Assembly (NCBI GenBank): GCA_965200965.1
Contig: OZ241744.1
Coordinates: 1,408,001 to 1,472,000, forward strand
Direction of reading: 5' to 3'
Length of the DNA stretch: 64,000 nucleotides
Origin: an uncultured Candidatus Binatia bacterium
Lineage (GTDB): Bacteria; Desulfobacterota; Binatia; Bin18
Made by a program: the position numbers and the translations under genes. The notes beneath the pieces are model-generated. The model was not told the DNA's origin. It made no database searches and was given only the letters and a program-made list of their open reading frames with translations. Of the stretch, positions 20,105 to 37,552 are shown piece by piece; positions within the stretch are counted from its first letter, which is position 1, and each line of letters starts with the position of its first letter.

Positions 20105-22099
20105 ATGCGTCGTCCTGTCCTATTTGCATGCCTGTTCACCGTCCTGTTCGGAAGCAGCCCGAGTTGGAGCCAGACCACCTCAGCCTCCCCCTCAGCGCCC
20201 ACCCTGACGAGCCTAGCGAGCGAGGTCGCAACCTTGAAGGCTACTGTCACTACCTTGCGGACCACCGTGGCCAAGCTGACCCGCTACATTCAGGTTATCG
20301 AGAATGCAGCCACCAGCACCTACCATGGCCTGAGCAGTCCGCATGTGGTCTTCACCGGGGCCAATGTCCACATCCGCAGCGGGTCGTCGGGGGTGACCCA
20401 TAAAGGACGGACCGTGAACGATGGCTGGGTCTCCGAACCCCTGGGGCTGGGCAACCTGATTATCGGCTACAACGAGGCGAACACTTGGCCGACTGCGGAT
20501 ACGGCCCAGCGGGGCGGCTCGCACAACTTGGTGATCGGGAGGTATCATCAGTACCCCACCTCTGGTGGGTTGGTGGCGGGGGAGGATAACGTCATCTCCG
20601 GCCATGCGGCGAGCGTGAGCGGCGGCACTCGGAACACAGCCAGCGGTCCTGCGGCGAGCGTGAGCGGCGGCACTCAGAACACAGCCAGCGGTCCTGCGGC
20701 GAGCGTGAGCGGGGGCTACCGCAACCGCTCCAGCGGCTATCACACCAGCGTGAGCGGCGGCGGTCAGAACACGGCCAGCGGCTCTAACTCCAGCGTGAGC
20801 GGCGGCCATGCCAACACGGCGACGAGCATCGCGGCGAGCGTGAGCGGGGGGCTAGAGAACACGGCCAGCGGCTCTAACTCCAGCGTGAGCGGGGGGCTAG
20901 AGAACACGGCCAGCGGCTCTAACTCCAGCGTGAGCGGCGGCCGTCTGAACAGGGCCAACGGAGGGAACTCCAGCGTGAGCGGCGGCCACAGCAACACGAC
21001 CCGGCATTATGACTCCAGCGTGAGCGGCGGCCATGCCAACACGGCCAGCGGCTGGGCGGCGAGCGTGAGCGGCGGCACTCAGAACACAGCCAGCGGCGCT
21101 GACTCCAGCGTGAGCGGCGGCACTCAGAACACAGCCAGCGGTCCTGCGGCAAGCGTGAGCGGCGGCTACCGCAACCGCTCCAGCGGCTATCACACCAGCG
21201 TGAGCGGCGGCGGTCAGAACACGGCCAGCGGCGCTGACTCCAGCGTGAGCGGCGGCGGTCAGAACACGGCCAGCGGCTCTAACTCCAGCGTGAGCGGGGG
21301 GCTAGAGAACACGGCCAGCGGCTCTAACTCCAGCGTGAGCGGCGGCCGTCTGAACAGGGCCAGCGGAGGGAACTCCAGCGTGAGCGGCGGCCACAGCAAC
21401 ACGACCCGGCATTATGACTCCAGCGTGAGCGGCGGCCATGCCAACACGGCCAGCGGCTGGGCGGCGAGCGTGAGCGGCGGCGGTCAGAACACGGCCAGCG
21501 GCGCTGACTCCAGTGTGAGCGGCGGCACTCAGAACACAGCCAGCGGCGCTGACTCCAGCGTGAGCGGCGGCGTCGGCAACATGGCCAGCGGCTCTAACTC
21601 CAGCGTGAGCGGGGGTGCCAACAACACGGCCAGCAGCCGCCAGTCGAGTGTGAGCGGGGGCCTCAGCAACACGGCCAGCGGTGCTCACTCCAGTGTGCTC
21701 GGTGGCGGCCGCAACACGGCCAACGGCTTTAACTCCAGCGTGAGCGGGGGTGCCCGCAACACGGCCAGTGGTCAGGCGACGAGCCTGAGCGGGGGCTGGG
21801 GCAACACGGCAGGTGACTATGGGGCCAGCGTCAGCGGCGGCATTCGCAACAGGGCCCTGGGCCGGATGGCCAGTGTGAGCGGCGGCAGGGACAACAGGGC
21901 CCTGGCTAATGAATCCAGCGTGAGCGGGGGCAAGAACAACACGGCGATCGGGAAGCGGAGCAGCATCAGCGGGGGCGAAAACCAGACGGTCAACGGCGAC
22001 CTCTGGTCCTGCTGGGGCTGGGGGGCCGTGCCTCGCCCGCTCGTCCCGTCCAGAGACAGTCCCTTTCGCCAACATTCCGTCGGGCTGTTGCGCCCATAG
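20105..22099 (+). CDS. secreted protein with about 33 14-residue SVSGGxxNxASGxx repeats (beta-roll/adhesin-like)
   Basis: signal peptide, short coiled coil, GLGNLIIGYNE/GSHNLVIG lead-in, long repeat array. Confidence 0.85.
   Translation: MRRPVLFACLFTVLFGSSPSWSQTTSASPSAPTLTSLASEVATLKATVTTLRTTVAKLTRYIQVIENAATSTYHGLSSPHVVFTGANVHIRSGSSGVTHKGRTVNDGWVSEPLGLGNLIIGYNEANTWPTADTAQRGGSHNLVIGRYHQYPTSGGLVAGEDNVISGHAASVSGGTRNTASGPAASVSGGTQNTASGPAASVSGGYRNRSSGYHTSVSGGGQNTASGSNSSVSGGHANTATSIAASVSGGLENTASGSNSSVSGGLENTASGSNSSVSGGRLNRANGGNSSVSGGHSNTTRHYDSSVSGGHANTASGWAASVSGGTQNTASGADSSVSGGTQNTASGPAASVSGGYRNRSSGYHTSVSGGGQNTASGADSSVSGGGQNTASGSNSSVSGGLENTASGSNSSVSGGRLNRASGGNSSVSGGHSNTTRHYDSSVSGGHANTASGWAASVSGGGQNTASGADSSVSGGTQNTASGADSSVSGGVGNMASGSNSSVSGGANNTASSRQSSVSGGLSNTASGAHSSVLGGGRNTANGFNSSVSGGARNTASGQATSLSGGWGNTAGDYGASVSGGIRNRALGRMASVSGGRDNRALANESSVSGGKNNTAIGKRSSISGGENQTVNGDLWSCWGWGAVPRPLVPSRDSPFRQHSVGLLRP
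20590..21990 (+). repeat. 42-bp coding tandem repeat array with higher-order block duplications
   Basis: recurring agcgtgagcggcgg..aacacggccagcgg at 42-bp period. Confidence 0.9.
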
Positions 22100-22111: not shown

Positions 22112-23914
22112 ATGCCATACGCAGGTCTGCACAAGCTGCTGCGCAGTACGATCGCTGCAAGCGCGTTCTTGCTTGTTCTCCCAGGTGAGGCGTCTGCCGT
22201 AGGCGGAAGAGCCCAGACACCTGAGCCGACACCGGCTGCCGCCCCCGCCTCGGTCCCGGCACCGCCGGCCCAGAACGACACCTCCCAGCTTGGCGATTTC
22301 AAGCTGGTCACCCACGCTCGTCTGCTCAAGGGCACGCAAGACCCCTCGGCTTGGCTGATGTACGGCGGCAGCTATGACAGCACCCGCTTCAGCCCGCTGA
22401 CCGATATCAACCGCGCCAATGTGAAAAAACTCCAGGCGGCATGGATGTTTCAAACCGGGGTCCCGGCCCAGTTCCAGGCCTCGCCGGTTGTGGCTGACGG
22501 CGTCATGTATATGACGGCTGCCTTCAACCATGTGTATGCGCTGAATGCCGAAACGGGCGAGATGCTATGGCGTTATGACCACCCCCTGCCGGGTGATATG
22601 CGGGTGTGCTGCGGCCCCAGCAACCGGGGCGTGGCAATAAGCGGCGATACGGTCTTTATGGCGACCCTCGACGCCCGCCTCGTCGCCCTCCAGGCCCAGA
22701 CCGGGGCCCTGGTGTGGCAGGTTGAGATCGACGATTACCGCAAAGGCTATAGCGCAACCGCCGCGCCCCTCATCGTCAAGAACAAGGTCATCGTCGGGAT
22801 TGCCGGTGGCGAGTATGGCATTCGTGGCTATGTGGATGCCTATCACGCGCAGACCGGAGCGCGCCGGTGGCGCCGTTATACCACCCCAGGCGCGGACGAA
22901 CCCGGGTCTGAAACCTGGTCCGGCGACTCGTGGAAGATCGGCGGCGGGCCGACCTGGATCACCGGCTCCTATGACCCTGAGCAGGACCTGATTTTCTGGG
23001 CAACCGGCAACCCGTCTCCCGACTGGAACGGTGATGTCCGCGAGGGAGATAATCTGTATACCGACTCGGTGCTGGCCCTGGAGCCGGAAACCGGCGCGAT
23101 CAAGTGGCATTTCCAGTTTACGCCGCACGATATCTGGGACTACGACGGCAATACCGACCTGTTTCTGATTGACGTTGAGCGGAGCGGGAAGACCGTCAAA
23201 GCCCTGGCCCAGCCCAACCGCAACGGCTACCTGTATGTGCTTGACCGAACCTCGGGCGAGTTTCTGCACGGCTCGCAGTATGTGGAACAGCTCAACTGGG
23301 CCAAGGGCCTTGACGAGCAGGGCCGCCCCATTGTGAACCCCGAATACGTCCCGACCAAGGAGGCCGGCAACTTTATCTGCCCAGGCTCGGTCGGCGGCAA
23401 AAACGGCTCGTGGACCGCAGCCTACAGCCCCATCACCAGGTACATGTATCTGCCGGTGGTCGAGAGTTGCTGGCAGATGACCAAAGGCGCGGCCACCTTT
23501 ATTCAGGGCATCCCTTTCTGGGGCGGCGGGCCAGGCAAGACGCAGGCCGACGACCAGTCGTCCTACGGCCATCTGTCCGCGGTAGACGTGTCAAGCGGAG
23601 CGGTGAAGTGGCGCTACAAAGACGACTATCCCCTGGTCGGCGGCACGATGGCCACCGCTGGCGGCCTGGTGTTTACCGGCGACCAAAAGGGCTATGCGCT
23701 GGCGTTTGACGACACCACAGGCGAGCTGCTGTGGAAGTTCCAGACCGGCTCAACCGTGCGCGGCCAGCCGGCAACCTACAAGGTCAACGGGCGTCAATAT
23801 GTGGCGATTCCGAGCGGCGGCGGCGGCTTGGCCGTGTCTCTGGTTGGCGAGAACCCGCTGGCGTCCAAAGGCAGCGCCCTGTTTGTGTTCGCCCTGCCCG
23901 AGGGTGAAGAATGA
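22112..23914 (+). CDS. PQQ-dependent alcohol dehydrogenase (methanol/ethanol family), predicted lanthanide-dependent
   Basis: vicinal CC (VCCGPSNRG), GGEYG, TGNPSP, WDYDG, W-docking motifs. Confidence 0.9.
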   Translation: MPYAGLHKLLRSTIAASAFLLVLPGEASAVGGRAQTPEPTPAAAPASVPAPPAQNDTSQLGDFKLVTHARLLKGTQDPSAWLMYGGSYDSTRFSPLTDINRANVKKLQAAWMFQTGVPAQFQASPVVADGVMYMTAAFNHVYALNAETGEMLWRYDHPLPGDMRVCCGPSNRGVAISGDTVFMATLDARLVALQAQTGALVWQVEIDDYRKGYSATAAPLIVKNKVIVGIAGGEYGIRGYVDAYHAQTGARRWRRYTTPGADEPGSETWSGDSWKIGGGPTWITGSYDPEQDLIFWATGNPSPDWNGDVREGDNLYTDSVLALEPETGAIKWHFQFTPHDIWDYDGNTDLFLIDVERSGKTVKALAQPNRNGYLYVLDRTSGEFLHGSQYVEQLNWAKGLDEQGRPIVNPEYVPTKEAGNFICPGSVGGKNGSWTAAYSPITRYMYLPVVESCWQMTKGAATFIQGIPFWGGGPGKTQADDQSSYGHLSAVDVSSGAVKWRYKDDYPLVGGTMATAGGLVFTGDQKGYALAFDDTTGELLWKFQTGSTVRGQPATYKVNGRQYVAIPSGGGGLAVSLVGENPLASKGSALFVFALPEGEE

Positions 23915-23921
23915 GCAGGCC

Positions 23922-24761
23922 ATGACGCGATTTTTCAGTGCCATCTGCCTTGTCGTCCTGGCTGTGTGTCCGGTGTCTGGCCAGGACAGGGCGGTTTTCC
24001 GCGCGTGTTTGCTGGCCGATAATCCGCCCTACTCCTGGCAGGCCGACGAGAGCGGTTTTGACCTTGAGACAGCCCGGGCGGTTGCCGAGTCAATAGGACG
24101 CAGGTTTCAGCCGGTCTGGGTTGCCCACGACACCCGGATCACCGAGATTGATGAGACCGACCTGCCCGTCTTTGGTCTCTCGCGTAGCCAGTGTGACGCG
24201 ATTTTCAGCGTGCCGGGCCAAGAAGCGCTGAACGAAGCGCCGGCGCTGGTGGTCGGAGAGCCGTACTACGGGGCCGGCTTTGAGCTGCTTGGACCGACTG
24301 CAAACAGTCCCCGCGGTCTGGACGATATCGGACAGCGGCCGGTTGCGGTTCGGGCGCAAACGATCGCGCATTTCATGCTGAGCGCCCGGCGCATCCAGAC
24401 CTTTACCACCTTCTCTCTTGAAGAGGCGCTCGGCGCGGTCAGCAGCGGCAAAGCGGCCGCCGCCCTGGTGTGGGGACCAAAAGCGGGCTGGCACTTGCGC
24501 ACCCATCCTGAACTGCCCTTCCGGCTCGTTGATACGCGCGAGCCGCCCAGCGTGGTGCGCTGGAACGAATCGGTCGCCACCCGCAAAGCCGATGCCGAGT
24601 TGCGCCAGGCCATTGACGGCGCGCTCAGCCGGCTGGCGGAAGCCGGTGCTCTCACCCGTTTGCTCGAAAAATATGGGATTCCCGCCCACCGTCCTTTTGC
24701 CACCACATACAGTTTTGCCGAGATGCAGCAGCTCATGTTTCACTCACTGAGCAATCGCTGA
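23922..24761 (+). CDS. MoxJ/XoxJ-like periplasmic binding protein
   Basis: RACL..NPPYS..GFD; position in PQQ cluster. Confidence 0.75.
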   Translation: MTRFFSAICLVVLAVCPVSGQDRAVFRACLLADNPPYSWQADESGFDLETARAVAESIGRRFQPVWVAHDTRITEIDETDLPVFGLSRSQCDAIFSVPGQEALNEAPALVVGEPYYGAGFELLGPTANSPRGLDDIGQRPVAVRAQTIAHFMLSARRIQTFTTFSLEEALGAVSSGKAAAALVWGPKAGWHLRTHPELPFRLVDTREPPSVVRWNESVATRKADAELRQAIDGALSRLAEAGALTRLLEKYGIPAHRPFATTYSFAEMQQLMFHSLSNR

Positions 24762-24775
24762 CCCGAGGGAGCGCT

Positions 24776-25192
24776 ATGAGTCGTCTGGCGGCCGGTTTCT
24801 CTTTTTTGGTGTGGAGTCTCTTCGGTATCGCAACAGGGCCGACCCTCGGCCAGGACAGCAATCCGTTTGCCGGTGATGCGGCCGCCATTGTCGAGGGCGA
24901 GGCCCTGTTTCAGGCCGTGTGTACCGGCTACTGCCACGTCGCCCCGGACAGCCAGCGCGACGCCAAATGCCCGGACCTGTTTGACTGTGAGTGGAAGAAC
25001 GGCGGCAGCGACAAAGAGATGTTTCAAGTCCTGCTCGACGGCGTGCCCAACACCGAGATGGTCCCTTTCAGGGGCCAGTTGCCCGACGATATGCTGTGGC
25101 AGATTGTGGCCTATGTGAAATCCGCTTCGCGCTGCGAAGAGGGCAGCGCCGCCGTGGATCAAAAAACCTCCGCGGTGTCCGCCCACGAATAG
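24776..25192 (+). CDS. c-type cytochrome (CxxxCH)
   Basis: NPFAGD..GEALF..CTGYCH..PDL..GVPNTEMVPF. Confidence 0.8.
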   Translation: MSRLAAGFSFLVWSLFGIATGPTLGQDSNPFAGDAAAIVEGEALFQAVCTGYCHVAPDSQRDAKCPDLFDCEWKNGGSDKEMFQVLLDGVPNTEMVPFRGQLPDDMLWQIVAYVKSASRCEEGSAAVDQKTSAVSAHE

Positions 25193-25204
25193 GAGGGGAG
25201 AGCA

Positions 25205-26176
25205 ATGATACGTCTGACTGCACGAAGTTTCTCAGTGTTGCCCTTTGCCCTGTGCTTTGTGACATGGGCCTTTTCCGCCTCGGCCGCGGCCCAGCCCTTT
25301 GCCTATGTCAGTCACGAAAAGTCAAACGATGTGTGGGTCATCAATACCCGGACCGACGAGGTGGTGGCCAAAGTCCCGGTCGGCGACCGGCCGCGCGGGC
25401 TTGTCGTGTCCGCGGACGGCAAACGGGTGTACGCCGCCAACGGCAACTCCAACGATATCTCGGTCATTGACGCCGAAACTAATACCGTCGTGGAGACCTT
25501 CCCGGTCGGCATTGACCCCGAAGGCATTGACCTCAGTCAGGACGAGAGCCTGCTCTTTGTGGTCAACGAAAACGAGGGTGTGATGCGCGTTGTTGAACTG
25601 GCCACCAAGAAGGTGCTCGCCACCGTCGAGGCCGGCATAGAGCCGGAAACAGTGGTGCTCTCGCCGGATGGCCGGCTGGCCTTTGTGCCGAATGAAACCT
25701 CCCACGATGTGACCGTCATTGACGCCCAGACCTATCAGGTCCTGCGCTCGATCAAGGTCGGCGAGAATCCGCGCGGGGTGGCGTTTCTGCCCGACGGTAA
25801 AACCGCCTATGTGAGCAGCGAGCGCAGCAATACGGTGGCGGTGATTGATGTCGAAAAGCTGGCCGTGACCGACACCATCGCCATGGGCGAGCGGCCAGTC
25901 GGCATCTCTGTGCTGCCGGACGGCTCAAAAGTCTATGTGGTGCATGGCCGGGCCAATGACGTACGGGTGATTGATCCACACACCAAGCAGGTGACTAAGA
26001 CCATCCCCCTGGGCGGCCAGCGGTGCTGGTGGTCGGCCCTGACCCCGGACGGCAAGAAGCTCTACGCCACAATGGGCCGGTCTGACGGCTTGGCCGTGAT
26101 CGATACTACAACCGATACGCTGCTGAAGACCATTGCGGTCGGCAATGTCCCCTGGGGAGTAGCAGTCACGCCCTGA
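25205..26176 (+). CDS. YVTN beta-propeller protein (PQQ-catabolism associated)
   Basis: repeated SxDG..YV.N...VxVID blades; signal peptide. Confidence 0.85.
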   Translation: MIRLTARSFSVLPFALCFVTWAFSASAAAQPFAYVSHEKSNDVWVINTRTDEVVAKVPVGDRPRGLVVSADGKRVYAANGNSNDISVIDAETNTVVETFPVGIDPEGIDLSQDESLLFVVNENEGVMRVVELATKKVLATVEAGIEPETVVLSPDGRLAFVPNETSHDVTVIDAQTYQVLRSIKVGENPRGVAFLPDGKTAYVSSERSNTVAVIDVEKLAVTDTIAMGERPVGISVLPDGSKVYVVHGRANDVRVIDPHTKQVTKTIPLGGQRCWWSALTPDGKKLYATMGRSDGLAVIDTTTDTLLKTIAVGNVPWGVAVTP

Positions 26177-28101: not shown

Positions 28102-28431
28102 TTAGCCCGCGTCTTCAATGGCCGCCCGCACGACCGGCTCAAGCTCGCCGCTCTGGTGCATCTCCTGGATGATGTCGCAGCCGCCGATGAACTCGCCCTT
28201 GACGTAGATCTGTGGGATGGTCGGCCAGTTGGAGTAGTGCTTGATGCCCTCCCGCACCGCGGGATTCTGGAGCACATCAACCGTTTGGTAGGGCACACCG
28301 AGCGAATCAAAAATCTGAATCGTGGCCGCGGAGAAGCCACACATCGGAAACTGCCGGTTGCCCTTCATAAAGATGAGGATCGGAGTGTCTTTGACGTGCT
28401 GGTCAATTTGGCTGAGAATATCGTCTGCCAT
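28102..28431 (-). CDS. grxD: monothiol glutaredoxin Grx4
   Basis: FMKG..PMCGFS, WPTIPQ, GGCDI. Confidence 0.95.
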   Translation of the reverse strand: MADDILSQIDQHVKDTPILIFMKGNRQFPMCGFSAATIQIFDSLGVPYQTVDVLQNPAVREGIKHYSNWPTIPQIYVKGEFIGGCDIIQEMHQSGELEPVVRAAIEDAG

Positions 28432-28488
28432 ACGCATGACTCCTTAGGGTGGTGGGTGAATGAAAAGAGCCTCAAGCGAGACTCGCCC

Positions 28489-28782
28489 TTAGGGGGTTTT
28501 GGCCGGCTGTATAGTCAGGACGCTGGCCGCCTCGGCCTGCGCCTCCTTCGGGGTAAGGGTGCTGAGCTTCAGGGCGTGGATGCGCTCTACCATCGCGTCC
28601 TGGAGTGCTCCATACACCATCCGGTGACGGGCGACTTTCCCTTTGCCGTGAAACGAGGCCGAGATGACCAGCGCCTCGTAGTGGTCTCCACCGCCGGTCA
28701 GGTCGCGGATTTTGACCTCGGCATCGGCAATTCCCTGGACAATCAGTTGGCTGATTTCCTCAGCCGTCATTGGTTCAGTCAT
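28489..28782 (-). CDS. BolA/IbaG family protein
   Basis: DLTGGGDHY, RHRMVY, IHAL; adjacent to grxD. Confidence 0.9.
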   Translation of the reverse strand: MTEPMTAEEISQLIVQGIADAEVKIRDLTGGGDHYEALVISASFHGKGKVARHRMVYGALQDAMVERIHALKLSTLTPKEAQAEAASVLTIQPAKTP

Positions 28783-28882
28783 GAGACGCTCCCCTCGCTG
28801 TTGAACACGGCTCAGCGCTCGGACCGAAGGCCGGGCCGTGGGCGTTTGCTCTGAGGGCAAACGAGGCGGGCAAAGCGCAGGA

Positions 28883-28999
28883 TTATTTCTTCTGCATCTC
28901 TGCTCCGCAGCACCTCACAGCACCGTCTCCGCCTTTGGTGACAATGATCTGGGCACCGCATTTTCCACACAGATACATTTTTCCGAGTTGGTTGGCCAT
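28883..28999 (-). CDS. desulforedoxin-like microprotein (38 aa)
   Basis: MANQLGKMYLCGKCGAQIIVTKGGDGAVRCCGAEMQKK; CxxC-x15-CC; AGGAGG RBS; below the ORF-track cutoff. Confidence 0.85.
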   Translation of the reverse strand: MANQLGKMYLCGKCGAQIIVTKGGDGAVRCCGAEMQKK

Positions 29000-29051
29000 G
29001 ACACTACCCTCCTGTCAAGAATGTATATGTATGCCGCATTGTGCGGGGTTT

Positions 29052-29825
29052 TTAGTTTCGCGTAAAGACCGGCTTGCGTTTTGCCAGGAAGGCGCGGACG
29101 CCCTCGGCTCTGTCCTGGGTCGTCTGGAGCAGGACGTACAGGTCTTCCTCAAGGCGGGTGCCCTGCTCCAGGCTCAGGTCCAGGGCCTTTAGCACCGCCT
29201 CTTTGCCGAGACGCAGGGCAATGGGGCCTTTCTCCAGCAGACCGGCCAGGACCTCGTCAACCCGGGCCGTAAAACGGTCAGCTGCAATGGCCTCTGTCAC
29301 CAGGCCAATCTGTTGCGCCCGGCTCGCGTCGAGACGCTTGGCGGTCAGAATCAGCTCCAGCGCCCTGGCTTGGCCGATGACGCGGGGCAGACGTTGGCTG
29401 CCGCCGCAGAACGGAATCAGGCCCTCGGTCAGCTGCGGGAGACCAAACTGCGCGCCGGCTTTTGCCAGTCGCAGGTCACACGCCAAGGCCAGTTCCAGCC
29501 CGACCCCCAGGGCGTCGCCGTTCAGCACGGCGATGGCCGGTTTGGTCAGGGCGGCCAGCCGCTCGACACAATACAGCCGACCAAACTGCTGGCGAATGCT
29601 GTGAGCGGTCGCTCCGCTGGGACCCGGCGTATACTCCAGCCCGGCGCAGAACGCCTCACCCTGACCGGTCAGTAACAGAATCTCGACCGCGTCGTCGTTC
29701 TCAACCGCTTCGCACACCGCAGCCAACTCTTGGGCCATAGCCGGGGTGAGGCGGTTGCCGCTGTCAGGCCGATTCAGCCTCAGCCGGGCAAAGCGCCGGT
29801 GGGTGGTGTAGGTGAGGTCTGACAT
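29052..29825 (-). CDS. enoyl-CoA hydratase/isomerase family
   Basis: LNRPD, FCAGL, GLELALACD. Confidence 0.9.
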   Translation of the reverse strand: MSDLTYTTHRRFARLRLNRPDSGNRLTPAMAQELAAVCEAVENDDAVEILLLTGQGEAFCAGLEYTPGPSGATAHSIRQQFGRLYCVERLAALTKPAIAVLNGDALGVGLELALACDLRLAKAGAQFGLPQLTEGLIPFCGGSQRLPRVIGQARALELILTAKRLDASRAQQIGLVTEAIAADRFTARVDEVLAGLLEKGPIALRLGKEAVLKALDLSLEQGTRLEEDLYVLLQTTQDRAEGVRAFLAKRKPVFTRN

Positions 29826-29837
29826 GGCCGGCCAGCC

Positions 29838-31394
29838 TTAATCTCCGTACTCGGCGCGGAGTTCCTTTTTCAGAATCTTGCCCATATGGTTTTTGGGCAG
29901 TTCGTCCATGAAGTGAATGTCTTCGGGTTTCTTAAAGCTCGACAGCCGCTTACGGCAGAATTCTCCCAACTCGTCTTCGGTCACACTCTGGCCCGGACGC
30001 ACCGCGACAAAGGCGGCAATTTTTTGCCCCCACTGCTCGTCCGGCACGCCGATAATGGCCGCTTCGTCAACCGCGGGGTGGGCGTGCAAGACGGCTTCGA
30101 TTTCGGCTGGGGCGATATTCTCGCCGCCCCGGATAATGATGTCGTCCTTGCGACCGACCAGGTAGATATAGCCGTCCCGGTCGAGATAGCCCATGTCTCG
30201 GGTATGCAGCCAACCCTCATCATCAAACAGGGCCGCGGTCGCGCTCTCCTGGCCGGCGTAGCCCTTCATGGCGCGTGGCGTGCGAATCACCACCTCGCCG
30301 ATCTCGTCGGCCGGCAGCGGTCTGTTATCGTCGTCAAGGATGGCGACTTCAACATCGGGCAGCGGCTTCCCAACCGAGGTGAGCCGCTTGAGGTTGCGCT
30401 CGATCTCTTCCTGGCTGCCGTTGAGTTTATGGTCATCCGGGCCGAGTACCGACAGGGTGGAGTTGGTCTCGGTCTGGCCAAAAGCATTCACAAAGCCGGT
30501 GCTATCCGGGAACAACTCAATCGCCTTGCGAATGACCGGAAACGGCATGGGCGCGCCCCCGTAGGACAGGTTTTCCAGGCTTGACAGGTCATAGTTGGAA
30601 AACTCTGGAAGGTCAATAAGCTGTTTCATCATGGTCGGCACGACAAAGGCGTGGGTGACGTGTTCGCCCTGGACCGCGGCCAGCCACTCCTTGGCGTCAA
30701 ACTGGCGCAGAATGACGATCTTGCGGCCAGACCACATCGCGGTCATAATGTTCATCGCACCGGCGATATGGTACAGTGGGGCGCACAACAGCGAGGTGCC
30801 GCGCGGAGTACCATCGGCCATCTCGACCGTGCCGACAACATAGTTGGTAAACCCGCCGTAGGTCAGCATCACCCCCTTGGGCAGCGAGGTGGTGCCGCTG
30901 GTGTACATCAGGATCGACAGGTCTTCTTCGTCCACATCGGCGTCTTCAATATCGGGCGAGCCTCTGGCAATCAGCTCCTCATGGTTGTGCATGTCAGGCT
31001 GGGTGCTCTCCATCGCTACATAGTGCTGAATCATCGAAAACCTGGGCTTCAGCTGCTCAAGCAGCGGTAGATAGCGGTCGCCGATAAACATGACTTTGAC
31101 ATCCGCGGCCGTGACCATATATTCCACTTCGGGCGGTTTGGCCCGGTAGTTGAGGGGCACGAAGGTCGCGCCGAGGGTCGCGGTCGCGTAATACGCCTCA
31201 ATATACTGATTTGAGTTGGTCTGGAGGGCGGCGACGCGGTCGCCGGGGCCAACGTCAAGCGCTTTCAGACTGCTGGCCAGTCGGCGGACACGGTCGAGTG
31301 TTTCGCCATAGCTCTGTCGTTTGCCCTCAAAAACGAGGATTTCCTGATCGGCCAGCATCATACCGGGAAGACTGAGAAAATTCGCAGTGTTCAT
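29838..31394 (-). CDS. acyl-CoA synthetase / AMP-binding (ANL) ligase
   Basis: YTSGTTSLPKG, FGQTE, GRKDD, PKNHMGKI. Confidence 0.95.
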   Translation of the reverse strand: MNTANFLSLPGMMLADQEILVFEGKRQSYGETLDRVRRLASSLKALDVGPGDRVAALQTNSNQYIEAYYATATLGATFVPLNYRAKPPEVEYMVTAADVKVMFIGDRYLPLLEQLKPRFSMIQHYVAMESTQPDMHNHEELIARGSPDIEDADVDEEDLSILMYTSGTTSLPKGVMLTYGGFTNYVVGTVEMADGTPRGTSLLCAPLYHIAGAMNIMTAMWSGRKIVILRQFDAKEWLAAVQGEHVTHAFVVPTMMKQLIDLPEFSNYDLSSLENLSYGGAPMPFPVIRKAIELFPDSTGFVNAFGQTETNSTLSVLGPDDHKLNGSQEEIERNLKRLTSVGKPLPDVEVAILDDDNRPLPADEIGEVVIRTPRAMKGYAGQESATAALFDDEGWLHTRDMGYLDRDGYIYLVGRKDDIIIRGGENIAPAEIEAVLHAHPAVDEAAIIGVPDEQWGQKIAAFVAVRPGQSVTEDELGEFCRKRLSSFKKPEDIHFMDELPKNHMGKILKKELRAEYGD

Positions 31395-31470
31395 AGGCGC
31401 TCCTCTTTGCGTAGTGCGGGTACAGCCGTTTCAGCTATCAGCCTTGAGCCGGGATGACAAGATACGAGGG

Positions 31471-32172
31471 CTACAGGCGGGAAAACAGACGCCATTCCAG
31501 CCCCAGACCCTCGGCCAGGGGCAGGTCAAGGCCCTGCCGAACCGCACGTTTGGCCAGGGCCAGCAGCCGCGGGTCGTGTCGGGCCAGGCTGGTGGCCAGC
31601 GTTTTTGCCGTTGTGAGCAGGACTTCGCGTGGCACGACCTGATTGGTCAGGCCGATCTGAAGCGCCTGCTCGGCGTTCACCCGCTTGCCCGTCAGGACCA
31701 TATCAAGGGCACGGCCAAGACCGATCGCCCGTGGCGCGGTCTGCGTTCCGGCAACGCCGGGAATCATCCCCAGCCCGGTTTCGGGCAAAAAGAACACCGT
31801 ATCGTCAGCGGCAATACACAGGTCGCACAACAGGGCCATTTCCATGCCGCCGCCAACGGTAAAGCCGTGGACCGCGGCAATTGTTGGCTGGGGCAGGCTG
31901 AGCAGCGTACCCCACACATCGCGCCGCCAGCGGATCTCCCGCGCGCCGACCGGCGAGGGGGCCGAGCCGAACTCCGACACATCCCCGCCGGTGGAGAAGG
32001 CCGGGCCCTCACCGCGCAGAATCATAACCCGCACCTCGGGGTCGTCGCCGACCGCGTGGAGCGTCTCGTACAGACCGTCACGCATCTCCACATTGTAGGC
32101 GTTGAACACCTTGGGGCGGTTGAGTGACACAATGGCCAGACTGTTTTCTTTATGGTAGATGACCGCCGCCAT
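31471..32172 (-). CDS. enoyl-CoA hydratase/isomerase family
   Basis: LNRPK, FSTGGD, GGGMEM, PETGLG. Confidence 0.9.
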   Translation of the reverse strand: MAAVIYHKENSLAIVSLNRPKVFNAYNVEMRDGLYETLHAVGDDPEVRVMILRGEGPAFSTGGDVSEFGSAPSPVGAREIRWRRDVWGTLLSLPQPTIAAVHGFTVGGGMEMALLCDLCIAADDTVFFLPETGLGMIPGVAGTQTAPRAIGLGRALDMVLTGKRVNAEQALQIGLTNQVVPREVLLTTAKTLATSLARHDPRLLALAKRAVRQGLDLPLAEGLGLEWRLFSRL

Positions 32173-32193
32173 GCTTTGTCACTAGCGGGTCAG

Positions 32194-32221
32194 GGGTGCT
32201 GGGTAAAGGGTGCTGGGTAAA
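32194..32221. repeat. 14-bp tandem duplication
   Basis: gggtgctgggtaaa x2. Confidence 0.8.
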
Positions 32222-32269
32222 AAGACGGGGGAGCGACTGAGGGTGCTGTCGCTGTAGAGGGACGGCCGA

Positions 32270-33211
32270 TCAACGCGCTCCTTCGCTCTGATCAAGGTCC
32301 AAGTACCGCTGTTCGAACTGCGAGAGTACTCCCCTTTCTCCCATCAGTGGCTTCCAGGCCCTTACCACATCGGCCAGGGTAAACGCTGAGAATGTTGCAT
32401 CGTTGCGCAAGAGCTCGCGGTATCCCCTGATTACGCGGCTGCAATCATGATCTTCAGGGTGATATACGACCGCCAAGCGACCTTCTTTGTACTTTGATTT
32501 GGGATGTCGCAGCAAAGACCACGCGAGCAGATGGTCGCGCCAGAGTTGGTTGTGCTTCTTTTCATCAATATCATTGCTGGCATTTTCTCCCCCCCAAGGG
32601 GAGTTCGGCATCTTCCACCACCTTCGATACTCCGGCTTGTCCTTCCTGTAGTATTTCTGCGAGAATGGCTCGGTCAGCTTGGTCTCGATCCCGACAAACC
32701 CCGCCTGCGCGTCAGCCGTTTCGTACCCAATGAACGCATCGAACGCCGTGCGGTCGTCCAGATACTCAGCACGGGGTTGTGGAGCCCACTCAAAGCACAC
32801 GCCTGTCACTCGCACGATGTGAGCTCCCCACAGTGCGCGCGCCAGCCTGGTGGCCAACGGCAGGTCGAGTGCGAGTTCACCGAACAGGTTGAAACACATT
32901 GGCTGACTCGACAGCATGTTTCTCTGGAGCCGAAATGGCTCCACCGTCCCAGAGCTTTCGGCAAGCCGTTGCTTAACTAACCCAAAGATGTTGTGTGTCA
33001 GGAAGTTAAGTCCAGCATCTGCCGACTCCTTGGTCAACATGTTCCCATAATAAGCAGTATCCGAAGGTCGGGGACCGGTTCCGTACGGCACCTTGAGCAC
33101 CTCATCCCTGTACCAACTCTGATGCAGCCTCATCCGCTTTGTGAAGGGCTTATCGCCCGTATATTGCGGGCCGAGGCCACGCCTTCCGCCGTTCGGCCTT
33201 TCATCAGCCAT
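32270..33211 (-). CDS. PGN_0703-like PD-(D/E)xK putative restriction endonuclease
   Basis: LSSQPMCFNLF, DRTAFDAFI, GIETKLTEPF, NQLWRDHLL. Confidence 0.75.
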   Translation of the reverse strand: MADERPNGGRRGLGPQYTGDKPFTKRMRLHQSWYRDEVLKVPYGTGPRPSDTAYYGNMLTKESADAGLNFLTHNIFGLVKQRLAESSGTVEPFRLQRNMLSSQPMCFNLFGELALDLPLATRLARALWGAHIVRVTGVCFEWAPQPRAEYLDDRTAFDAFIGYETADAQAGFVGIETKLTEPFSQKYYRKDKPEYRRWWKMPNSPWGGENASNDIDEKKHNQLWRDHLLAWSLLRHPKSKYKEGRLAVVYHPEDHDCSRVIRGYRELLRNDATFSAFTLADVVRAWKPLMGERGVLSQFEQRYLDLDQSEGAR

Positions 33212-33251
33212 ATGGTTTCCCCTTACCTAATGCCGGGACAGGCAATCGTGT

Positions 33252-34820
33252 CTAGGCGGCCCCTCTGTTCCAGGTTCTGTGCCACACGATTTTGCCGCCG
33301 ACGATCGTGGTGGTTGCCGACAGCGAACCGATGGCCTGGGCTGGGACCGCACTCATATCATCGTCAAGGAGCACCAGGTCCGCCAGCATTCCCGGCGCGA
33401 TCTTGCCCTTCGTGTCTTCTTCAAAGCCTACCCAGGCGGCCGCGCTGGTGAAAAGCCCCAGCGCCTGGGCCAGGCTCACCCGCTCCACCGCATTCACCGC
33501 CCGGCCGGTCTGAGACTGTCTGGTGCGGGCCGCGGCGATGCTGGCCAGCGGGGCCAGTGGTCCAACCGGACAGTCTGAGCTGCCCGCCACCGGGATACGG
33601 CGGTTGAGCAGGCTTCTCGTCCGGTACAGCCAGGGGTGGATTTCGGGCGCAACCTCAGCCGTGTATTTGTCTCCGTACCAGTACACAAATCCGGGCTGGG
33701 TGACGACCGCGCAGCCGCTTCTTTTCAGTTGATCCAGAAACGGCGGTGGACACAGCGCGCAGTGTTCGATCCGGTGGCGGTGGTCTGGGCGCGGCAGCCC
33801 TTGCTGGGCGTGTTCCAGCGCATCAAGAGCCAGGCCGATGGTGGCTTCTTCGACGGCGTGGAAGGCCAGCTGGAAGCCGTGTTGATGGGCACGCCAGACC
33901 ATGCGCCTGAGTTCCTGCGGCTGTGGATAGAGCATGCCCCGGCTCTCGTGCAACATGATTTTGATACTGCCCAAGCGGACCTGCTCGTCCCCGCTAAAAG
34001 GTCCGAGCCGGGCTTCGAGGAGCTGGTCCAGGGCTGCACTACCGAGCATGACAGTGGCCCGCGAAGTCAGTAGCCCGTCTGCCCTCAACTGCTGAAAGAC
34101 CGCCAGATCGTCAAGGGTATTGCCGGCGCTGGCGTCGTGGAATGAGGTCACGCCCAGGCGCAGCAAGTCTTGTCCGGCCCGTTGCAGGCCAGCCCGAAAT
34201 TCGGCCGCGGGCAGGCCAGGAATAACGGTCCGCAAAAAGGGCTCAAGTTCGTACACTACACCTGTTGGCCGGCCGCTGGGGTCGCGTTCGGCGTGGCCGC
34301 CGTCACGGTTGGCAAAGGACGGGCCGATGCCGGCGCGTTGCAGGCCGGCGGTGTTGAGCACCGCGGCATGGCCGGAGCGGTGGCGGACCACAACCGGCCT
34401 GTCACGACACACTGCGTCAAGGTCATCTCGGGTCGGATGGCGTTTTTCGCTCAGCAGGAAGTCCTCGTAGCCATAGCCGCGCAGCCATTCTCCGGGCTGG
34501 AGCCGGGGCAGACTACGCGCCAGGGTGTGGCGTAGCTCGGCCATTGATCCGGCACCGCTGAGATCCGCGCCACACAGTCGGCTGGCCCAAGAAAAGAGGT
34601 GGAGATGCGGATCAATGAAGCCGGGCAGAACGGTGTGACCGTGGCAGTCCAGCAGATGGGTGTGGCACGCAATATACGGCCGGAGGTCGGCCGTTCTGCC
34701 AACCGCCACGATCCGCTCGCCGGCTATGGCCACGGCTTCGGCGGTCGGGCGGTTCGGGTCCTGGGTGAGAACCCTGCCGCTATGCACCACAAGGTCGGCC
34801 GGGCAGACGGGCAGCGACAT
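33252..34820 (-). CDS. amidohydrolase_3 (YtcJ-like)
   Basis: PGFIDPHLH, FHAVE, RIEH, GSSDCPV, GMLADL. Confidence 0.9.
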   Translation of the reverse strand: MSLPVCPADLVVHSGRVLTQDPNRPTAEAVAIAGERIVAVGRTADLRPYIACHTHLLDCHGHTVLPGFIDPHLHLFSWASRLCGADLSGAGSMAELRHTLARSLPRLQPGEWLRGYGYEDFLLSEKRHPTRDDLDAVCRDRPVVVRHRSGHAAVLNTAGLQRAGIGPSFANRDGGHAERDPSGRPTGVVYELEPFLRTVIPGLPAAEFRAGLQRAGQDLLRLGVTSFHDASAGNTLDDLAVFQQLRADGLLTSRATVMLGSAALDQLLEARLGPFSGDEQVRLGSIKIMLHESRGMLYPQPQELRRMVWRAHQHGFQLAFHAVEEATIGLALDALEHAQQGLPRPDHRHRIEHCALCPPPFLDQLKRSGCAVVTQPGFVYWYGDKYTAEVAPEIHPWLYRTRSLLNRRIPVAGSSDCPVGPLAPLASIAAARTRQSQTGRAVNAVERVSLAQALGLFTSAAAWVGFEEDTKGKIAPGMLADLVLLDDDMSAVPAQAIGSLSATTTIVGGKIVWHRTWNRGAA

Positions 34821-34888
34821 GGCGTTTGACAGCAAAAAGGTCGATGCGTGGCATCGACCTGTGAGCCGAAATGAAGCGCCGGGTGCGC

Positions 34889-35029
34889 TTAGTCGGACGA
34901 CGGCAGGGGTTTTGCCTCTTTGAGCGGCATATCTGCATCACAGCAGTTCAGCGTGCCGTCGCCGGGTTTGTTGCACAGAACCTCAGTCCCACAGGTTCCA
35001 CACATATAGCGTTTTCCCAACTGAGCCAT
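34889..35029 (-). CDS. desulforedoxin-like microprotein (46 aa) with KPLPSSD tail
   Basis: MAQLGKRYMCGTCGTEVLCNKPGDGTLNCCDADMPLKEAKPLPSSD; AGGAGG RBS; below the ORF-track cutoff. Confidence 0.85.
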   Translation of the reverse strand: MAQLGKRYMCGTCGTEVLCNKPGDGTLNCCDADMPLKEAKPLPSSD

Positions 35030-35059
35030 GCTACCCTCCTTGCATATGTGATCGTCCCC

Positions 35060-36130
35060 TCACTCCCAGGGGAATGGAAGGACAGTCACCTCTGCTATCA
35101 TGGGTGTTCCGTTGGTGTCAATCCGCAGCTGGGTGCCCGGCTCGAGATGCTCACGGCGGACATAGCCGAGGGCGATGGGACGACCCAAACAGGGAGAGAT
35201 GACGGCGCTGGTGATCCAGCCGACCTCCCTGGTATCGTGGAACAGCTTGTCCCCGCTCTGGGGCGGAACCGCCCCCCGCACCAGCAGGCCGCTGAGTTTG
35301 CGATTCACCCGTCCACGCGCCGAGGCGCGTTCGACCACCTCCTGGCCCAGATAGCAGCCCTTGTTGAAGCTGATCGTGTGCTCAAGGCCGACTTCCAGCA
35401 CGATGCGGTCTTCGTCCATGTCAAGGCCGTACCACGGAATCCCGGCCTCAATTCGCAGTATATTGAGCGCGTGTAAACCGACCGGGCACGCCCCGAGCGG
35501 CTGGCCGGCCCTGACGAGGGCCTGCCACACCGCCTCGGCCCGCGGCCGGGGAAGCAGGAGTTCGTAGCCGTTCAGGCCGGTCTCGGGCACACGAACGATG
35601 CGGACGGGCGTTTCGGCCAGCCGGACTTCCGTGTGCTGGCCGGCGTCGGTCAGGCTGAGTGAGACGCCGGCCGCGGTGAGCAGACCTGGGGCCAGCGGTC
35701 CCAGGACGGCAAGCGTGGCTTGGCCCAGAGCCTCCAACTCCACGTCATCGGCGATGATGAAGCGCTCGAGCGCGGCGACCGTCTTGTCTTTGATCCGGGC
35801 GTCAAGGTCGAGCAGGAAGCGGTCTTTGAGCGCATACACCCGCAGGTCGGCCACAATCCGGCCGTGCTCTGTCAACAGGGTTGCCGGACAGCCCTGGCCG
35901 GGCTGCAAGGAGCCGACATCGTTCGACACCATGCCTTGCAAAAACGAGACGCGGTCTTCTCCGCTCATAGCGAGCTGGACCCGGAAGGACAGGTCGATAA
36001 TCCCGGCCGTGTGGTGGACAGCCCGGTATTCTTGCTCAACATTGGTAAAGCGCTCGGGCAGGCGAATGCCCCGGTCGTCAATCAAGGCGGCTCCGTGGGC
36101 AGTGTGCCAAGCCGTCAGCGGGGACTGCAT
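35060..36130 (-). CDS. YgfZ/GcvT folate-binding protein
   Basis: KGCYLGQE signature, RIEAG. Confidence 0.9.
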   Translation of the reverse strand: MQSPLTAWHTAHGAALIDDRGIRLPERFTNVEQEYRAVHHTAGIIDLSFRVQLAMSGEDRVSFLQGMVSNDVGSLQPGQGCPATLLTEHGRIVADLRVYALKDRFLLDLDARIKDKTVAALERFIIADDVELEALGQATLAVLGPLAPGLLTAAGVSLSLTDAGQHTEVRLAETPVRIVRVPETGLNGYELLLPRPRAEAVWQALVRAGQPLGACPVGLHALNILRIEAGIPWYGLDMDEDRIVLEVGLEHTISFNKGCYLGQEVVERASARGRVNRKLSGLLVRGAVPPQSGDKLFHDTREVGWITSAVISPCLGRPIALGYVRREHLEPGTQLRIDTNGTPMIAEVTVLPFPWE

Positions 36131-36141
36131 GTGACACCTCC

Positions 36142-37230
36142 TCAGGCCGGAGCGGCGTTCAGGCGGCGCAACTCCCGCACCGCCCGAATGCGTTCCTGGG
36201 CCAGGGTGACGGCCAACCGATGGGCGGGGATGCGGCGTTGCTTGGCCTCGGTAAACAAGGTTTTGAGCGTGGTATAGATGGTTTCGGTTTTAGCCTGGGC
36301 CCGCTCACGCCGGTAGCCGCCGGGGCCGAGTTCGTCGGCAACGTTGATGAGGCCGCCGGCGTTGATGGCGAAATCGGGTGCGTACAGAATGCCCCGGTCG
36401 AACAGGGCGTCGCCGTCCTCGTCGCTCAGCAGTTGGTTGTTGGCCCCGCCGCCAATGATCCGGCAGCGCAGGTGGGGAATGGTCTGGCTGTGAAACAGGC
36501 CGCCGGTGGCGCACGGGGCCAGGATGTCGCACTCCTGGCTGTAGATGTCCTGGGGGCTGACCACCCGGGCCTGGAAGTCGGCCTCGGCCTGCTGGACGCG
36601 GCTGGCGTCCACATCGGCCACAATGAGCCGCGCTCCGGCTTGGTGCAGGTGGCGGGCCAGGGGATAGCCGACCTTGCCCAGACCGGGCAGGGCCACGGTC
36701 TTGCTCCCGAAGTCGTCCGTGCCGTCCAGCTCTTCGAGACACGCCCGCTGGCCGCAGAAGATGCCCCAGGCCGTCATCTCTGAGGGGTCGCCGCCACCGC
36801 CACAGACCTCTTCCCGGCCAACGCCAAAGCGGCTCTCTTTGCGCACCCGTTCAATATCCGCGGTTGAGGTGCCCATGTCTTCGGTCGGGATGTAGTGGCC
36901 GGCCAGCGATTCAATCGCCCGGCCCAGGGCGCGGAACAGCATCTCTCGCTGCGGCTCGGTGACGGGACGCTCGGCAATCACTACCGCCTTGCCGCCGCCG
37001 TAGTCCAACCCGGCCAGCGCGGCCTTGTAGGTCATGGCTTGGGCCAGCCGCAGGGCGTCGGTAACGGCCTCGGCCTCAGTCGCATAGGCCCGCCGGCGCA
37101 TCCCGCCCAGGGCCGGCCCCAGGGTCGTGTCGTGGATGGCGACGATCGCTTTCAGCCCGACCGAGCGGTCGGCGCAAAAGACCACCTGTTCGTAGTCTTC
37201 GGCGTGCATGGTGTCAAACAGCGCAGTCAT
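36142..37230 (-). CDS. Glu/Leu/Phe/Val dehydrogenase (leucine dehydrogenase-like)
   Basis: HDTTLGPALGG, GGGKAV, EDMGT, GANNQ, NAGG. Confidence 0.9.
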   Translation of the reverse strand: MTALFDTMHAEDYEQVVFCADRSVGLKAIVAIHDTTLGPALGGMRRRAYATEAEAVTDALRLAQAMTYKAALAGLDYGGGKAVVIAERPVTEPQREMLFRALGRAIESLAGHYIPTEDMGTSTADIERVRKESRFGVGREEVCGGGGDPSEMTAWGIFCGQRACLEELDGTDDFGSKTVALPGLGKVGYPLARHLHQAGARLIVADVDASRVQQAEADFQARVVSPQDIYSQECDILAPCATGGLFHSQTIPHLRCRIIGGGANNQLLSDEDGDALFDRGILYAPDFAINAGGLINVADELGPGGYRRERAQAKTETIYTTLKTLFTEAKQRRIPAHRLAVTLAQERIRAVRELRRLNAAPA

Positions 37231-37246
37231 GGCCGTTTTCCCCGGT

Positions 37247-37552
37247 TCAGACCTCAACCAGAATGTCGTCGCCGTCAAGTTTGACCGCGTAGGTGTCTTG
37301 TTTCACGTCCGGGTCGTCAAGGTTCTCGCCGGTCGTCACATTGTATTCCCAGCCGTGCCAGGGGCAGATCACGGTCGTGCCGTCAAGGTCGCCCTCGTCC
37401 AGCGGGCCGCCCTGGTGGGGGCAGATATTGTCAATGGCGTAATACTTGCCCTCAACCTGGAAGATGGCGATCTGCTTGTCTTCGACCTCAACGCACTTCC
37501 CCCCGCCGTCCGGGATGTCACTCTTGTGGGCGACTTTGATGAAATCTCCCAT
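37247..37552 (-). CDS. Rieske (2Fe-2S) ferredoxin
   Basis: CPHQGGPL...CPWHG. Confidence 0.9.
   Translation of the reverse strand: MGDFIKVAHKSDIPDGGGKCVEVEDKQIAIFQVEGKYYAIDNICPHQGGPLDEGDLDGTTVICPWHGWEYNVTTGENLDDPDVKQDTYAVKLDGDDILVEV

Follow-up and report, generated by a model that had tools for sequence, protein, structure and literature searches.

The question raised by this locus is what two very small desulforedoxin-like proteins do at the ends of an operon of acyl-coenzyme A (CoA) enzymes. The operon lies on the minus strand of a 64,000-nucleotide stretch of DNA (the window; positions 1,408,001 to 1,472,000 of contig OZ241744.1, assembly GCA_965200965.1) from an uncultured Candidatus Binatia bacterium, and it encodes an amidohydrolase, a crotonase, an ANL-family ligase and a second crotonase, with a long mini-gene at one end and a short mini-gene at the other. 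The analysis revealed a real, widespread and undescribed system, present in several phyla, in which the C-terminal aspartate (Asp) of the mini-protein is near-invariant and is tentatively read as the point at which a carrier is charged.

Both mini-proteins were confirmed as paralogues with the pattern QLGKxYxCxxCG-x14-CC-x3-M, the tail KEAKPLPSSD being restricted to the long one and the same element AGGAGGGTAG lying ahead of both genes, as the initial annotation had described. Its desulforedoxin label was also borne out, both proteins passing the gathering cut-off of PF06397 (27.1 and 23.7 bits vs 23). Neither reached the cut-off of TIGR00319; the desulfoferrodoxin/superoxide reductase model TIGR00320 was missed (21.2 and 19.5 bits vs 146.9), and no superoxide reductase domain was found in the open reading frames. 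The word unannotated was too strong, as both exact protein sequences are already on record as called genes.

The long gene showed 238 synonymous codon differences and 114 amino-acid differences against 14 relatives, and the short gene 121 and 109, respectively, against 15 relatives. A 12.5-kb contig from a second study, which covers positions 28168-36200, differed from the window at 23 places, none of them inside either mini-gene. Because synonymous differences outnumber replacements and no strain difference falls in either of them, the mini-genes are regarded as real genes and not chance open reading frames. Of the strain differences, 13 (7 synonymous and 6 nonsynonymous) fell in the amidohydrolase gene, where they were grouped at the 5' end. 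The possibility that the short gene is a nonsense-mutated pseudogene, with LPxS in register after the stop, was rejected because the stop stood at the identical place in 16/16 class-level loci examined and the sequence following it was variable. A lone third copy of the long gene, degenerate and with an altered tail, was observed apart from the operon in one relative (G040; L046:8492-8641).

In other bacteria the two mini-proteins occur as a single chain. Three class-level relatives (L045, L047 and L048) encode one protein of 97-103 amino acids (aa) that comprises both domains, lacks the four-Cys sites and ends in LPSSD. The fused form was matched by 3,894 clusters at E<=0.001, was found in Myxococcota, Acidimicrobiia, Frankia, Phenylobacterium and Gammaproteobacteria, and was present on 19 plasmid records from Rhodococcus, Streptomyces, Sphingobium, Mycobacterium and Sphingomonas; short-long fusions exist both with and without cysteines. 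AlphaFold2 gave a compact model for a fused member (predicted local distance difference test (pLDDT) 94.8, predicted template modelling score (pTM) 0.83), with a tail free of secondary structure. The C-domain in the model of a Cys-less fused homologue matched desulforedoxin 1cfw, the top-ranked structure, over 36/36 residues with a root-mean-square deviation of 1.5 Å and a Z of 3.3, a low value for a small domain. The lone 46-aa window protein was modelled as all-beta (pLDDT 76.6, pTM 0.49). Foldseek with the fused model returned no match at E<=0.001, and the fused protein matched nothing but unnamed clusters in the ESM Atlas, where recognition fell short of the tool's own threshold. The two-domain assembly of the fused form resembles the desulforedoxin dimer. 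Since the halves form a single fused chain in other bacteria, the two mini-genes likely encode the halves of one desulforedoxin-fold protein and form a heterodimer with one tail; the heterodimer guessed at in the initial annotation is thus supported by natural fusions, although fusion does not prove pairing. Several fused or reversed variants with divergent tails were also observed (P0253, P0266, P0342, P0366 and P0378, ending in Glu, Phe or Gly or with the tail-less domain last), and these are perhaps related systems with other chemistry.

The tail ended in LPSSD in 118 of 120 close homologues among the matches listed, the other two running on. An exhaustive profile search yielded 1,244 representatives at 50% identity; for the tail survey 145 new representatives were retrieved, of which 129 had a tail of normal length and 16 were dropped (11 run-on, 3 short, 2 without the motif). 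In the 129, the terminal residue was Asp in 125, Glu in 2 and another residue in 2, with Ser (116) or Ala (12) at position -2, Ser (102) or Ala (23) at -3 and Pro (120) at -4. All codon families were used in the tail, and therefore selection acts on the protein. Neither CxxC nor CC was present in 75 of the same set, CxxC was combined with CH in 13, and the four cysteines expected of an electron carrier (CxxC with CC) were found in only 36. An additional cysteine, Cys19, was invariant in close homologues; among 109 parsed representatives the position was occupied by Cys in 87 and by Val, Ala, Ile or Ser in 22, and it aligns with a hydrophobic strand position of desulforedoxin. Among the sequences compared, near-invariance is thus a property of the terminal Asp and not of the metal site, the serines or Cys19.

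The initial annotation had made conservation of the tail and of the neighbourhood the touchstone of its proposal, and both are conserved across several phyla. Of 80 fused-type loci, 59 had an ANL ligase inside the fetched flank, which in 39 of the 80 was full-length and no more than 400 bp away, and the ligase directly adjoined the fused gene in 6/6 plasmid records opened of the 19. The ligases of the system constitute a score-separated clade (hereafter ANL*), with 98 sequences at 529 bits or above vs 20 others at 374 bits or below. The long gene was found in 35 of 41 related genomes, most of which have the short gene at a distance of about 5 kb. ANL* and the system-specific clade of the first crotonase (ECH1*) were each found in the same 33 genomes, which make up 33 of the 35 peptide carriers, and in 0 of the 6 non-carriers, a comparison that is partly circular in that the profiles were built from such loci; the two carriers in which neither was detected are fragmented genomes, 87-88% complete. 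Among 201 Actinomycetota genomes, the centre genome of which was chosen as a positive, 13 matched the peptide profile. One of these (G124) holds a tail-less desulforedoxin-like protein and no ANL*; the remaining 12 were exactly the 12 genomes with ANL* and also the top 12 for ECH1*, the twelfth scoring 172 bits and the next genome close to it at 160. ECH1* in these genomes was often on another contig or megabases from the peptide gene. In about 250 genomes from the class of G043, the peptide and ANL* were found in the same 2. In the broad searches 6-24 candidates were scored per genome and the counts ignore kinship; the non-carriers include four unpublished genomes (G133, G093, G165 and G046), and G462 was left out of peptide scoring. 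The copy numbers of peptide, ANL* and ECH1* were 2:2:1 in G043 and G128. As judged from sequence profiles, the mini-protein is inherited along with a single clade of ligases and a single clade of crotonases, including where these are unlinked.

A further split type was represented by 80 metagenome loci, with neighbour clusters commonest in Thermodesulfobacteriota and Chloroflexota, in which the order is second crotonase (ECH2), ECH1*, ligase, short, long. The gene immediately upstream of the mini-pair was ANL* in 41 loci, a two-subunit family I 3-oxoacid CoA-transferase in 8, a contig edge in 21 and another gene in 10. The transferase subunits scored 206 vs 128.5 with TIGR02429 and 244.9 vs 243.55 with TIGR02428, and the complete order ECH2, ECH1*, transferase A, transferase B, short, long was visible in L236 and L259. 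Because the conversion of an acid to acyl-CoA is the sole chemistry common to the ligase and the transferase, we infer that the first step would give a CoA thioester for the crotonase, and not an amide of the LysW type. Directly downstream of the pair in the metagenome loci were a transglutaminase-like tetratricopeptide repeat (TPR) protein (19), histone deacetylase-like proteins (15), alpha/beta hydrolases (7) and metallo-beta-lactamase-fold hydrolases (4). The transglutaminase-like TPR protein, a 221-aa SirB1/Transglut_core2 look-alike with conserved Cys and His motifs, was observed after the peptide pair in L228 (329-994) and 29 other metagenome loci of anaerobe type; the making or breaking of amides on the tail would be a possible role for it.

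The window ligase scored above cut-off for PF00501/PF13193 and NF004837. Its adenylation residues T165, E309, D400, R415 and K506 were invariant in 98/98 ANL* sequences, and the clade also keeps R84, G423-G424, W455 and K/R488, which we take to be the CoA-contacting positions of 4-chlorobenzoate-CoA ligase; clade-specific positions include Y185, N303, A304, T310, S312, T313, H322, R337 and D417. ECH1* retains two invariant catalytic-type Glu residues together with invariant R81 and R84, and its final helix is missing. In ECH2 the second Glu is replaced by Gln, and conservation is strongest in the C-terminal helix. In fused-type loci, single-chain crotonases of about 340 aa carry a similar helix ahead of the ECH1* part (weak scores). 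ECH2 would accordingly be the degenerate partner subunit that completes the ECH1 site within one enzyme.

In a quick tree, all 40 system-linked amidohydrolases were separated from 14 ordinary YtcJ-like proteins by a split with a support of 100. In 40/40 of the system-linked enzymes about 20 residues after the conserved Lys are deleted, the span being 30-35 vs 47-57 in 18 others, and each metal ligand (His-x-His, Lys, His, His, Asp) is kept in 39-40 of the 40. The loop-deleted form usually accompanies the peptide, ANL* and ECH1*, and was present in 12/12 Actinomycetota carriers, in 11 by sequence and in G077 by its position beside ECH1*; profile scores did not separate the clades there and the search missed members (7 candidates per genome), so that region maps, the tree and the loop length settled the clade. 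Beside this enzyme, fused-type loci contain a truncated CaiB/BaiF-like protein (20 motif-bearing genes: L057:11038-12267, L176:9964-11076 and 18 more), which has an AFGDDA motif and matches only the first ~200 positions of PF02515; it was absent from the window's genome and five relatives. Both the loop deletion and the truncation are as expected if the sites were opened for a large substrate.

Some further ideas on the role of the system were not borne out. Substitution of the tail Asp for a missing catalytic Asp of CaiB-type transferases was discarded because most of the 46 paralogues in the genome keep this Asp (position judged by motif). Service to an expanded CaiB family did not agree with the only 4 CaiB matches in two carrier genomes, and service to an expanded Amidohydro_2 family did not agree with the counts, which do not track the system (1 in carrier G040, at least 44 in non-carrier G035). 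The whole genome G000 shows a strong imbalance of acyl-CoA genes, with 46 CaiB-type CoA-transferase open reading frames, 28 acyl-CoA dehydrogenases and 32 Amidohydro_2 matches, but no more than 4 each of ANL ligases and crotonases were detected.

Taken together, the mini-protein goes with the activating enzyme where position and copy number are concerned and with ECH1* where presence is concerned, and it persists when the activating enzyme is replaced by one of another fold. A substrate shared by ligase and ECH1* explains both links most simply, since a subunit of one enzyme explains only one. The carrier point is placed at the terminal Asp because this is the only near-invariant reactive group and stands on an unstructured arm. 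We therefore favour, at a little under an even chance, a reading in which the heterodimer is a carrier: its terminal Asp may be activated with CoA, altered by the two crotonases and finally split off. The ligase would convert the tail Asp carboxylate into a CoA thioester, the ECH1/ECH2 pair would modify this thioester, and the amidohydrolase, through its opened site, would release the product by hydrolysis. Least secure in this scheme are the identification of the activated acid with the tail Asp (an N-acyl-aminosuccinate, which would look like succinate), the nature of the crotonase reaction and the product that is released. It is possible, if doubtful, that the whole constitutes a protein-templated pathway of a new kind in which a protein-bound aspartyl-CoA thioester, mimicking succinyl-CoA, is reshaped by the crotonase heteromer and released as an Asp-derived cofactor or metabolite, which would then be common to Binatia, Mycobacterium, Rhodococcus, Frankia, Streptomyces, sphingomonads, Myxococcota and anaerobic sediment bacteria.

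Several observations weigh against the carrier reading. The core includes no redox or group-transfer enzyme, and no convincing crotonase reaction on an aspartyl thioester could be proposed; an invariant acidic residue at the C-terminus is just as typical of tails that dock non-covalently. G195 has two peptides with one ANL* and one ECH1* (2:1:1). The 8 transferase loci are close relatives that probably reflect one event, their organisms could hold ANL* elsewhere, and the replacing transferase is of the ScoA/ScoB (PcaI/J) type, for which the acceptors known are small acids. An hhalign comparison of ECH2 with the N-terminal part of the fused crotonases gave a probability of only 9%, and the loop-deleted amidohydrolase was not found in the near-complete carriers G030 and G038. 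The terminator-like hairpin 3' of the long gene, which in this family speaks for the carrier, has counterparts with other stem sequences that are confined to same-family relatives, and it is not general (z<-2 in 11/89 fused-type and 7/70 metagenome loci).

A real but minority possibility, and the main rival, is that the mini-protein is an unmodified accessory subunit whose tail docks into the ligase and/or the crotonase as an activator, a scaffold or a donor of a catalytic carboxylate, the pathway itself acting on a small amide or acid by hydrolysis, CoA activation, and hydration or cleavage. Strict co-occurrence and adjacency would fit, as would neighbours that are catabolic acyl-CoA enzymes and the small acids used by ScoA/B-type transferases; the invariant R81/R84 of ECH1* and the clade-specific polar pocket of the ligase could bind a small dicarboxylate. 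However, an activator specific to the ligase should vanish when the ligase is replaced, yet the pair stays, and a crotonase subunit should track ECH1* in position and copy number, whereas the mini-protein tracks the ligase. A conserved dehydrogenase or thiolase that would complete beta-oxidation was also absent from the window-type operon. The initial annotation had instead proposed a carrier pathway modelled on LysW, of which the carrier survives as the best reading and the LysW form does not. In this version, which we consider improbable, the ligase would form an amide between an amine and the terminal Asp, the crotonases would act on the protected cargo and the amidohydrolase would set it free. 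According to the account of LysW cited here (PMC10433800), LysW has Zn-binding cysteines, a C-terminus EDWGE with a terminal Glu, the ligase LysX and a downstream hydrolase; our system mirrors this logic in its small Cys-metal protein, terminal acidic residue, ATP-dependent ligase and amide hydrolase, as it would that of ArgW, and differs in the tail, LPSSD vs EDWGE. It further differs in having an ANL ligase or family I CoA-transferase, not a LysX/ArgX-type enzyme, and in tailoring by crotonases vs a kinase, reductase and aminotransferase. Amide-hydrolase-type families and the transglutaminase-like protein do follow the pair in metagenome loci, and an amide could still arise later from a thioester; nevertheless, the ligase slot can hold a transferase that makes thioesters and not amides, as in 8/80 loci, and the ligase keeps the residues to which we ascribe CoA binding.

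Two other functions appear very improbable. An acyl carrier acting through a tail Ser or Cys19, in the manner of an acyl carrier protein or a thiol carrier, would suit the two tail serines and the frequent Cys19, but each serine is Ala in some members, Cys19 is replaced in a fifth of the parsed representatives at a position that is hydrophobic in desulforedoxin, the mini-proteins had no PP-binding Pfam match, and a phosphopantetheinyl transferase was not among the recurrent neighbours. An Fe(Cys)4 electron carrier, or an Fe or Fe-S accessory tied to YgfZ, Rieske, BolA and Grx4, had been the other proposal of the initial annotation, and we give it as little weight. Both window proteins keep CxxC...CC and match the desulforedoxin family, and Fe-S genes flank the operon in this family; most tailed representatives, however, have neither Cys motif, and within the same class fused proteins devoid of the cysteines accompany the same ligase and crotonase clades. 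A redox enzyme is missing from the core, and outside the family the operon lacks BolA-Grx4. Because most fused proteins are without the metal cysteines, an Fe or electron-transfer role is not supported as the core function.

The system was compared with known ones. Desulforedoxin (1cfw/1dxg; PF06397) shares the CxxC-x~15-CC motif and the fold; the mini-protein differs in its two unlike and often fused halves, its dispensable metal ligands, its Asp tail, and its linkage to acyl-CoA enzymes and not superoxide reductase. MbtH-like activators are small proteins encoded beside an adenylating enzyme with a copy number that follows the enzyme, whereas the mini-protein belongs to another Pfam family, persists after replacement of the adenylating enzyme and is co-inherited with a crotonase and a hydrolase. 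MenE/MenB and Fcs/Ech likewise pair a CoA ligase with a crotonase without a redox step, and the best PDB matches include feruloyl-CoA synthetase and MenE; the NCBIfam cut-offs for the crotonases and for o-succinylbenzoate ligase (PRK03640/TIGR01923) were not reached, and we know of no small protein partner for either pair. Mycofactocin-type systems combine a small precursor with an invariant C-terminus, dedicated enzymes and a releasing hydrolase in similar taxa, but here there is a folded carrier domain, no radical S-adenosylmethionine enzyme or RiPP recognition element (RRE), and no client family was found. A literature search covering listings and abstracts returned no description of the system. 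It is compact and mostly single-copy (carrier, ligase or CoA-transferase, crotonase pair, hydrolase), is represented in thousands of sequence clusters, and has members hidden under the labels 'hypothetical protein', 'fadD' and 'ech'. Should the tail Asp prove to be the substrate, the system would provide CoA-thioester and crotonase chemistry on a protein C-terminus, of which no description was found, and would assign a function to one subclade of fadD/ech in the culturable genera Mycobacterium, Rhodococcus and Sphingobium.

Features of the operon and its surroundings in the window
Feature	Position	Strand	Remarks
Long mini-protein, 46 aa	34889..35029	minus	desulforedoxin-type domain and tail ending Pro-Ser-Ser-Asp; corresponds to C-terminal domain of fused ~100-aa homologues
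Short mini-protein, 38 aa	28883..28999	minus	no tail; corresponds to N-terminal domain of fused homologues
Shine-Dalgarno-like AGGAGGGTAG of long gene	35031..35040	minus	
Shine-Dalgarno-like AGGAGGGTAG of short gene	29004..29013	minus	
Terminator-like hairpin	34838..34860	minus	10-bp stem then T run, directly 3' of long gene
Amidohydro_3 (YtcJ-like) metallo-amidohydrolase, system-linked clade	33252..34835	minus	metal ligands kept, ~20-residue loop after conserved Lys deleted
PD-(D/E)XK nuclease, 313 aa	32270..33211	minus	PF20796; lineage-specific insertion outside system
Crotonase 1 (ECH1*), system-specific clade	31471..32172	minus	E111, E131, R81/R84 invariant; C-terminal helix truncated
ANL-family acyl-CoA ligase (ANL*), system-specific clade	29838..31394	minus	
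Crotonase 2 (ECH2)	29052..29825	minus	degenerate active site, second Glu to Gln; conserved C-terminal E-x3-Y-x2-LQ helix
YgfZ/GcvT-like protein	35060..36130	minus	upstream, not core; conserved neighbour in this class only
Glu/Leu/Phe/Val dehydrogenase	36142-37278		between YgfZ and Rieske protein

The usual order in relatives is YgfZ, long, amidohydrolase, ECH1, ligase, ECH2, short. The order of the co-oriented run given in the initial annotation was correct, except that a nuclease gene between the amidohydrolase and crotonase 1 had been overlooked; this gene was unmatched in 20/20 mapped relatives' regions. YgfZ and the Rieske protein, named from its visible CPH..CPWH motifs, are both upstream as described, with the dehydrogenase gene between them. 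YgfZ is a neighbour at the level of the class and BolA-Grx4 at the level of the family, and neither belongs to the core.

The amidohydrolase-ECH1 junction is a site of both insertion and breakage in the family. It holds the nuclease gene in the window, ~11 kb of other genes in G005 (L051:4578-15329) and a 456-aa gene in G021 (L044:7993-9363), and in G002 (L049/L050) the operon is split there by 3.5 Mb. Five Actinomycetota genomes (L171, L172, L175, L176 and L177) combine ECH1*, the amidohydrolase and the truncated CaiB protein with an adjoining 607-609-aa gene and another ANL ligase; MaoC-like, acyl-CoA dehydrogenase and GntR genes are also there, and the arrangement is similar to that of the mycobacterial pckA-fadD4-fadE3-Rv0216 region. 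In unrelated taxa (L074, L078, L084, L089, L097, L108, L111, L116, L178 and L181), the system repeatedly has hydantoinase/oxoprolinase (acetone-carboxylase-like) genes as neighbours, accompanied by CoxG and an Fe-S oxidoreductase; the enzymes are a possible source of substrate. Elsewhere in the window, a 664-aa secreted-type open reading frame with many 14-residue SVSGG repeats occupies 20105-22099, and a block with a pyrroloquinoline quinone (PQQ)-dependent dehydrogenase-like gene and substrate-binding, cytochrome c and beta-propeller genes (22112-26176; motif-based names) is kept downstream of the operon in the family.

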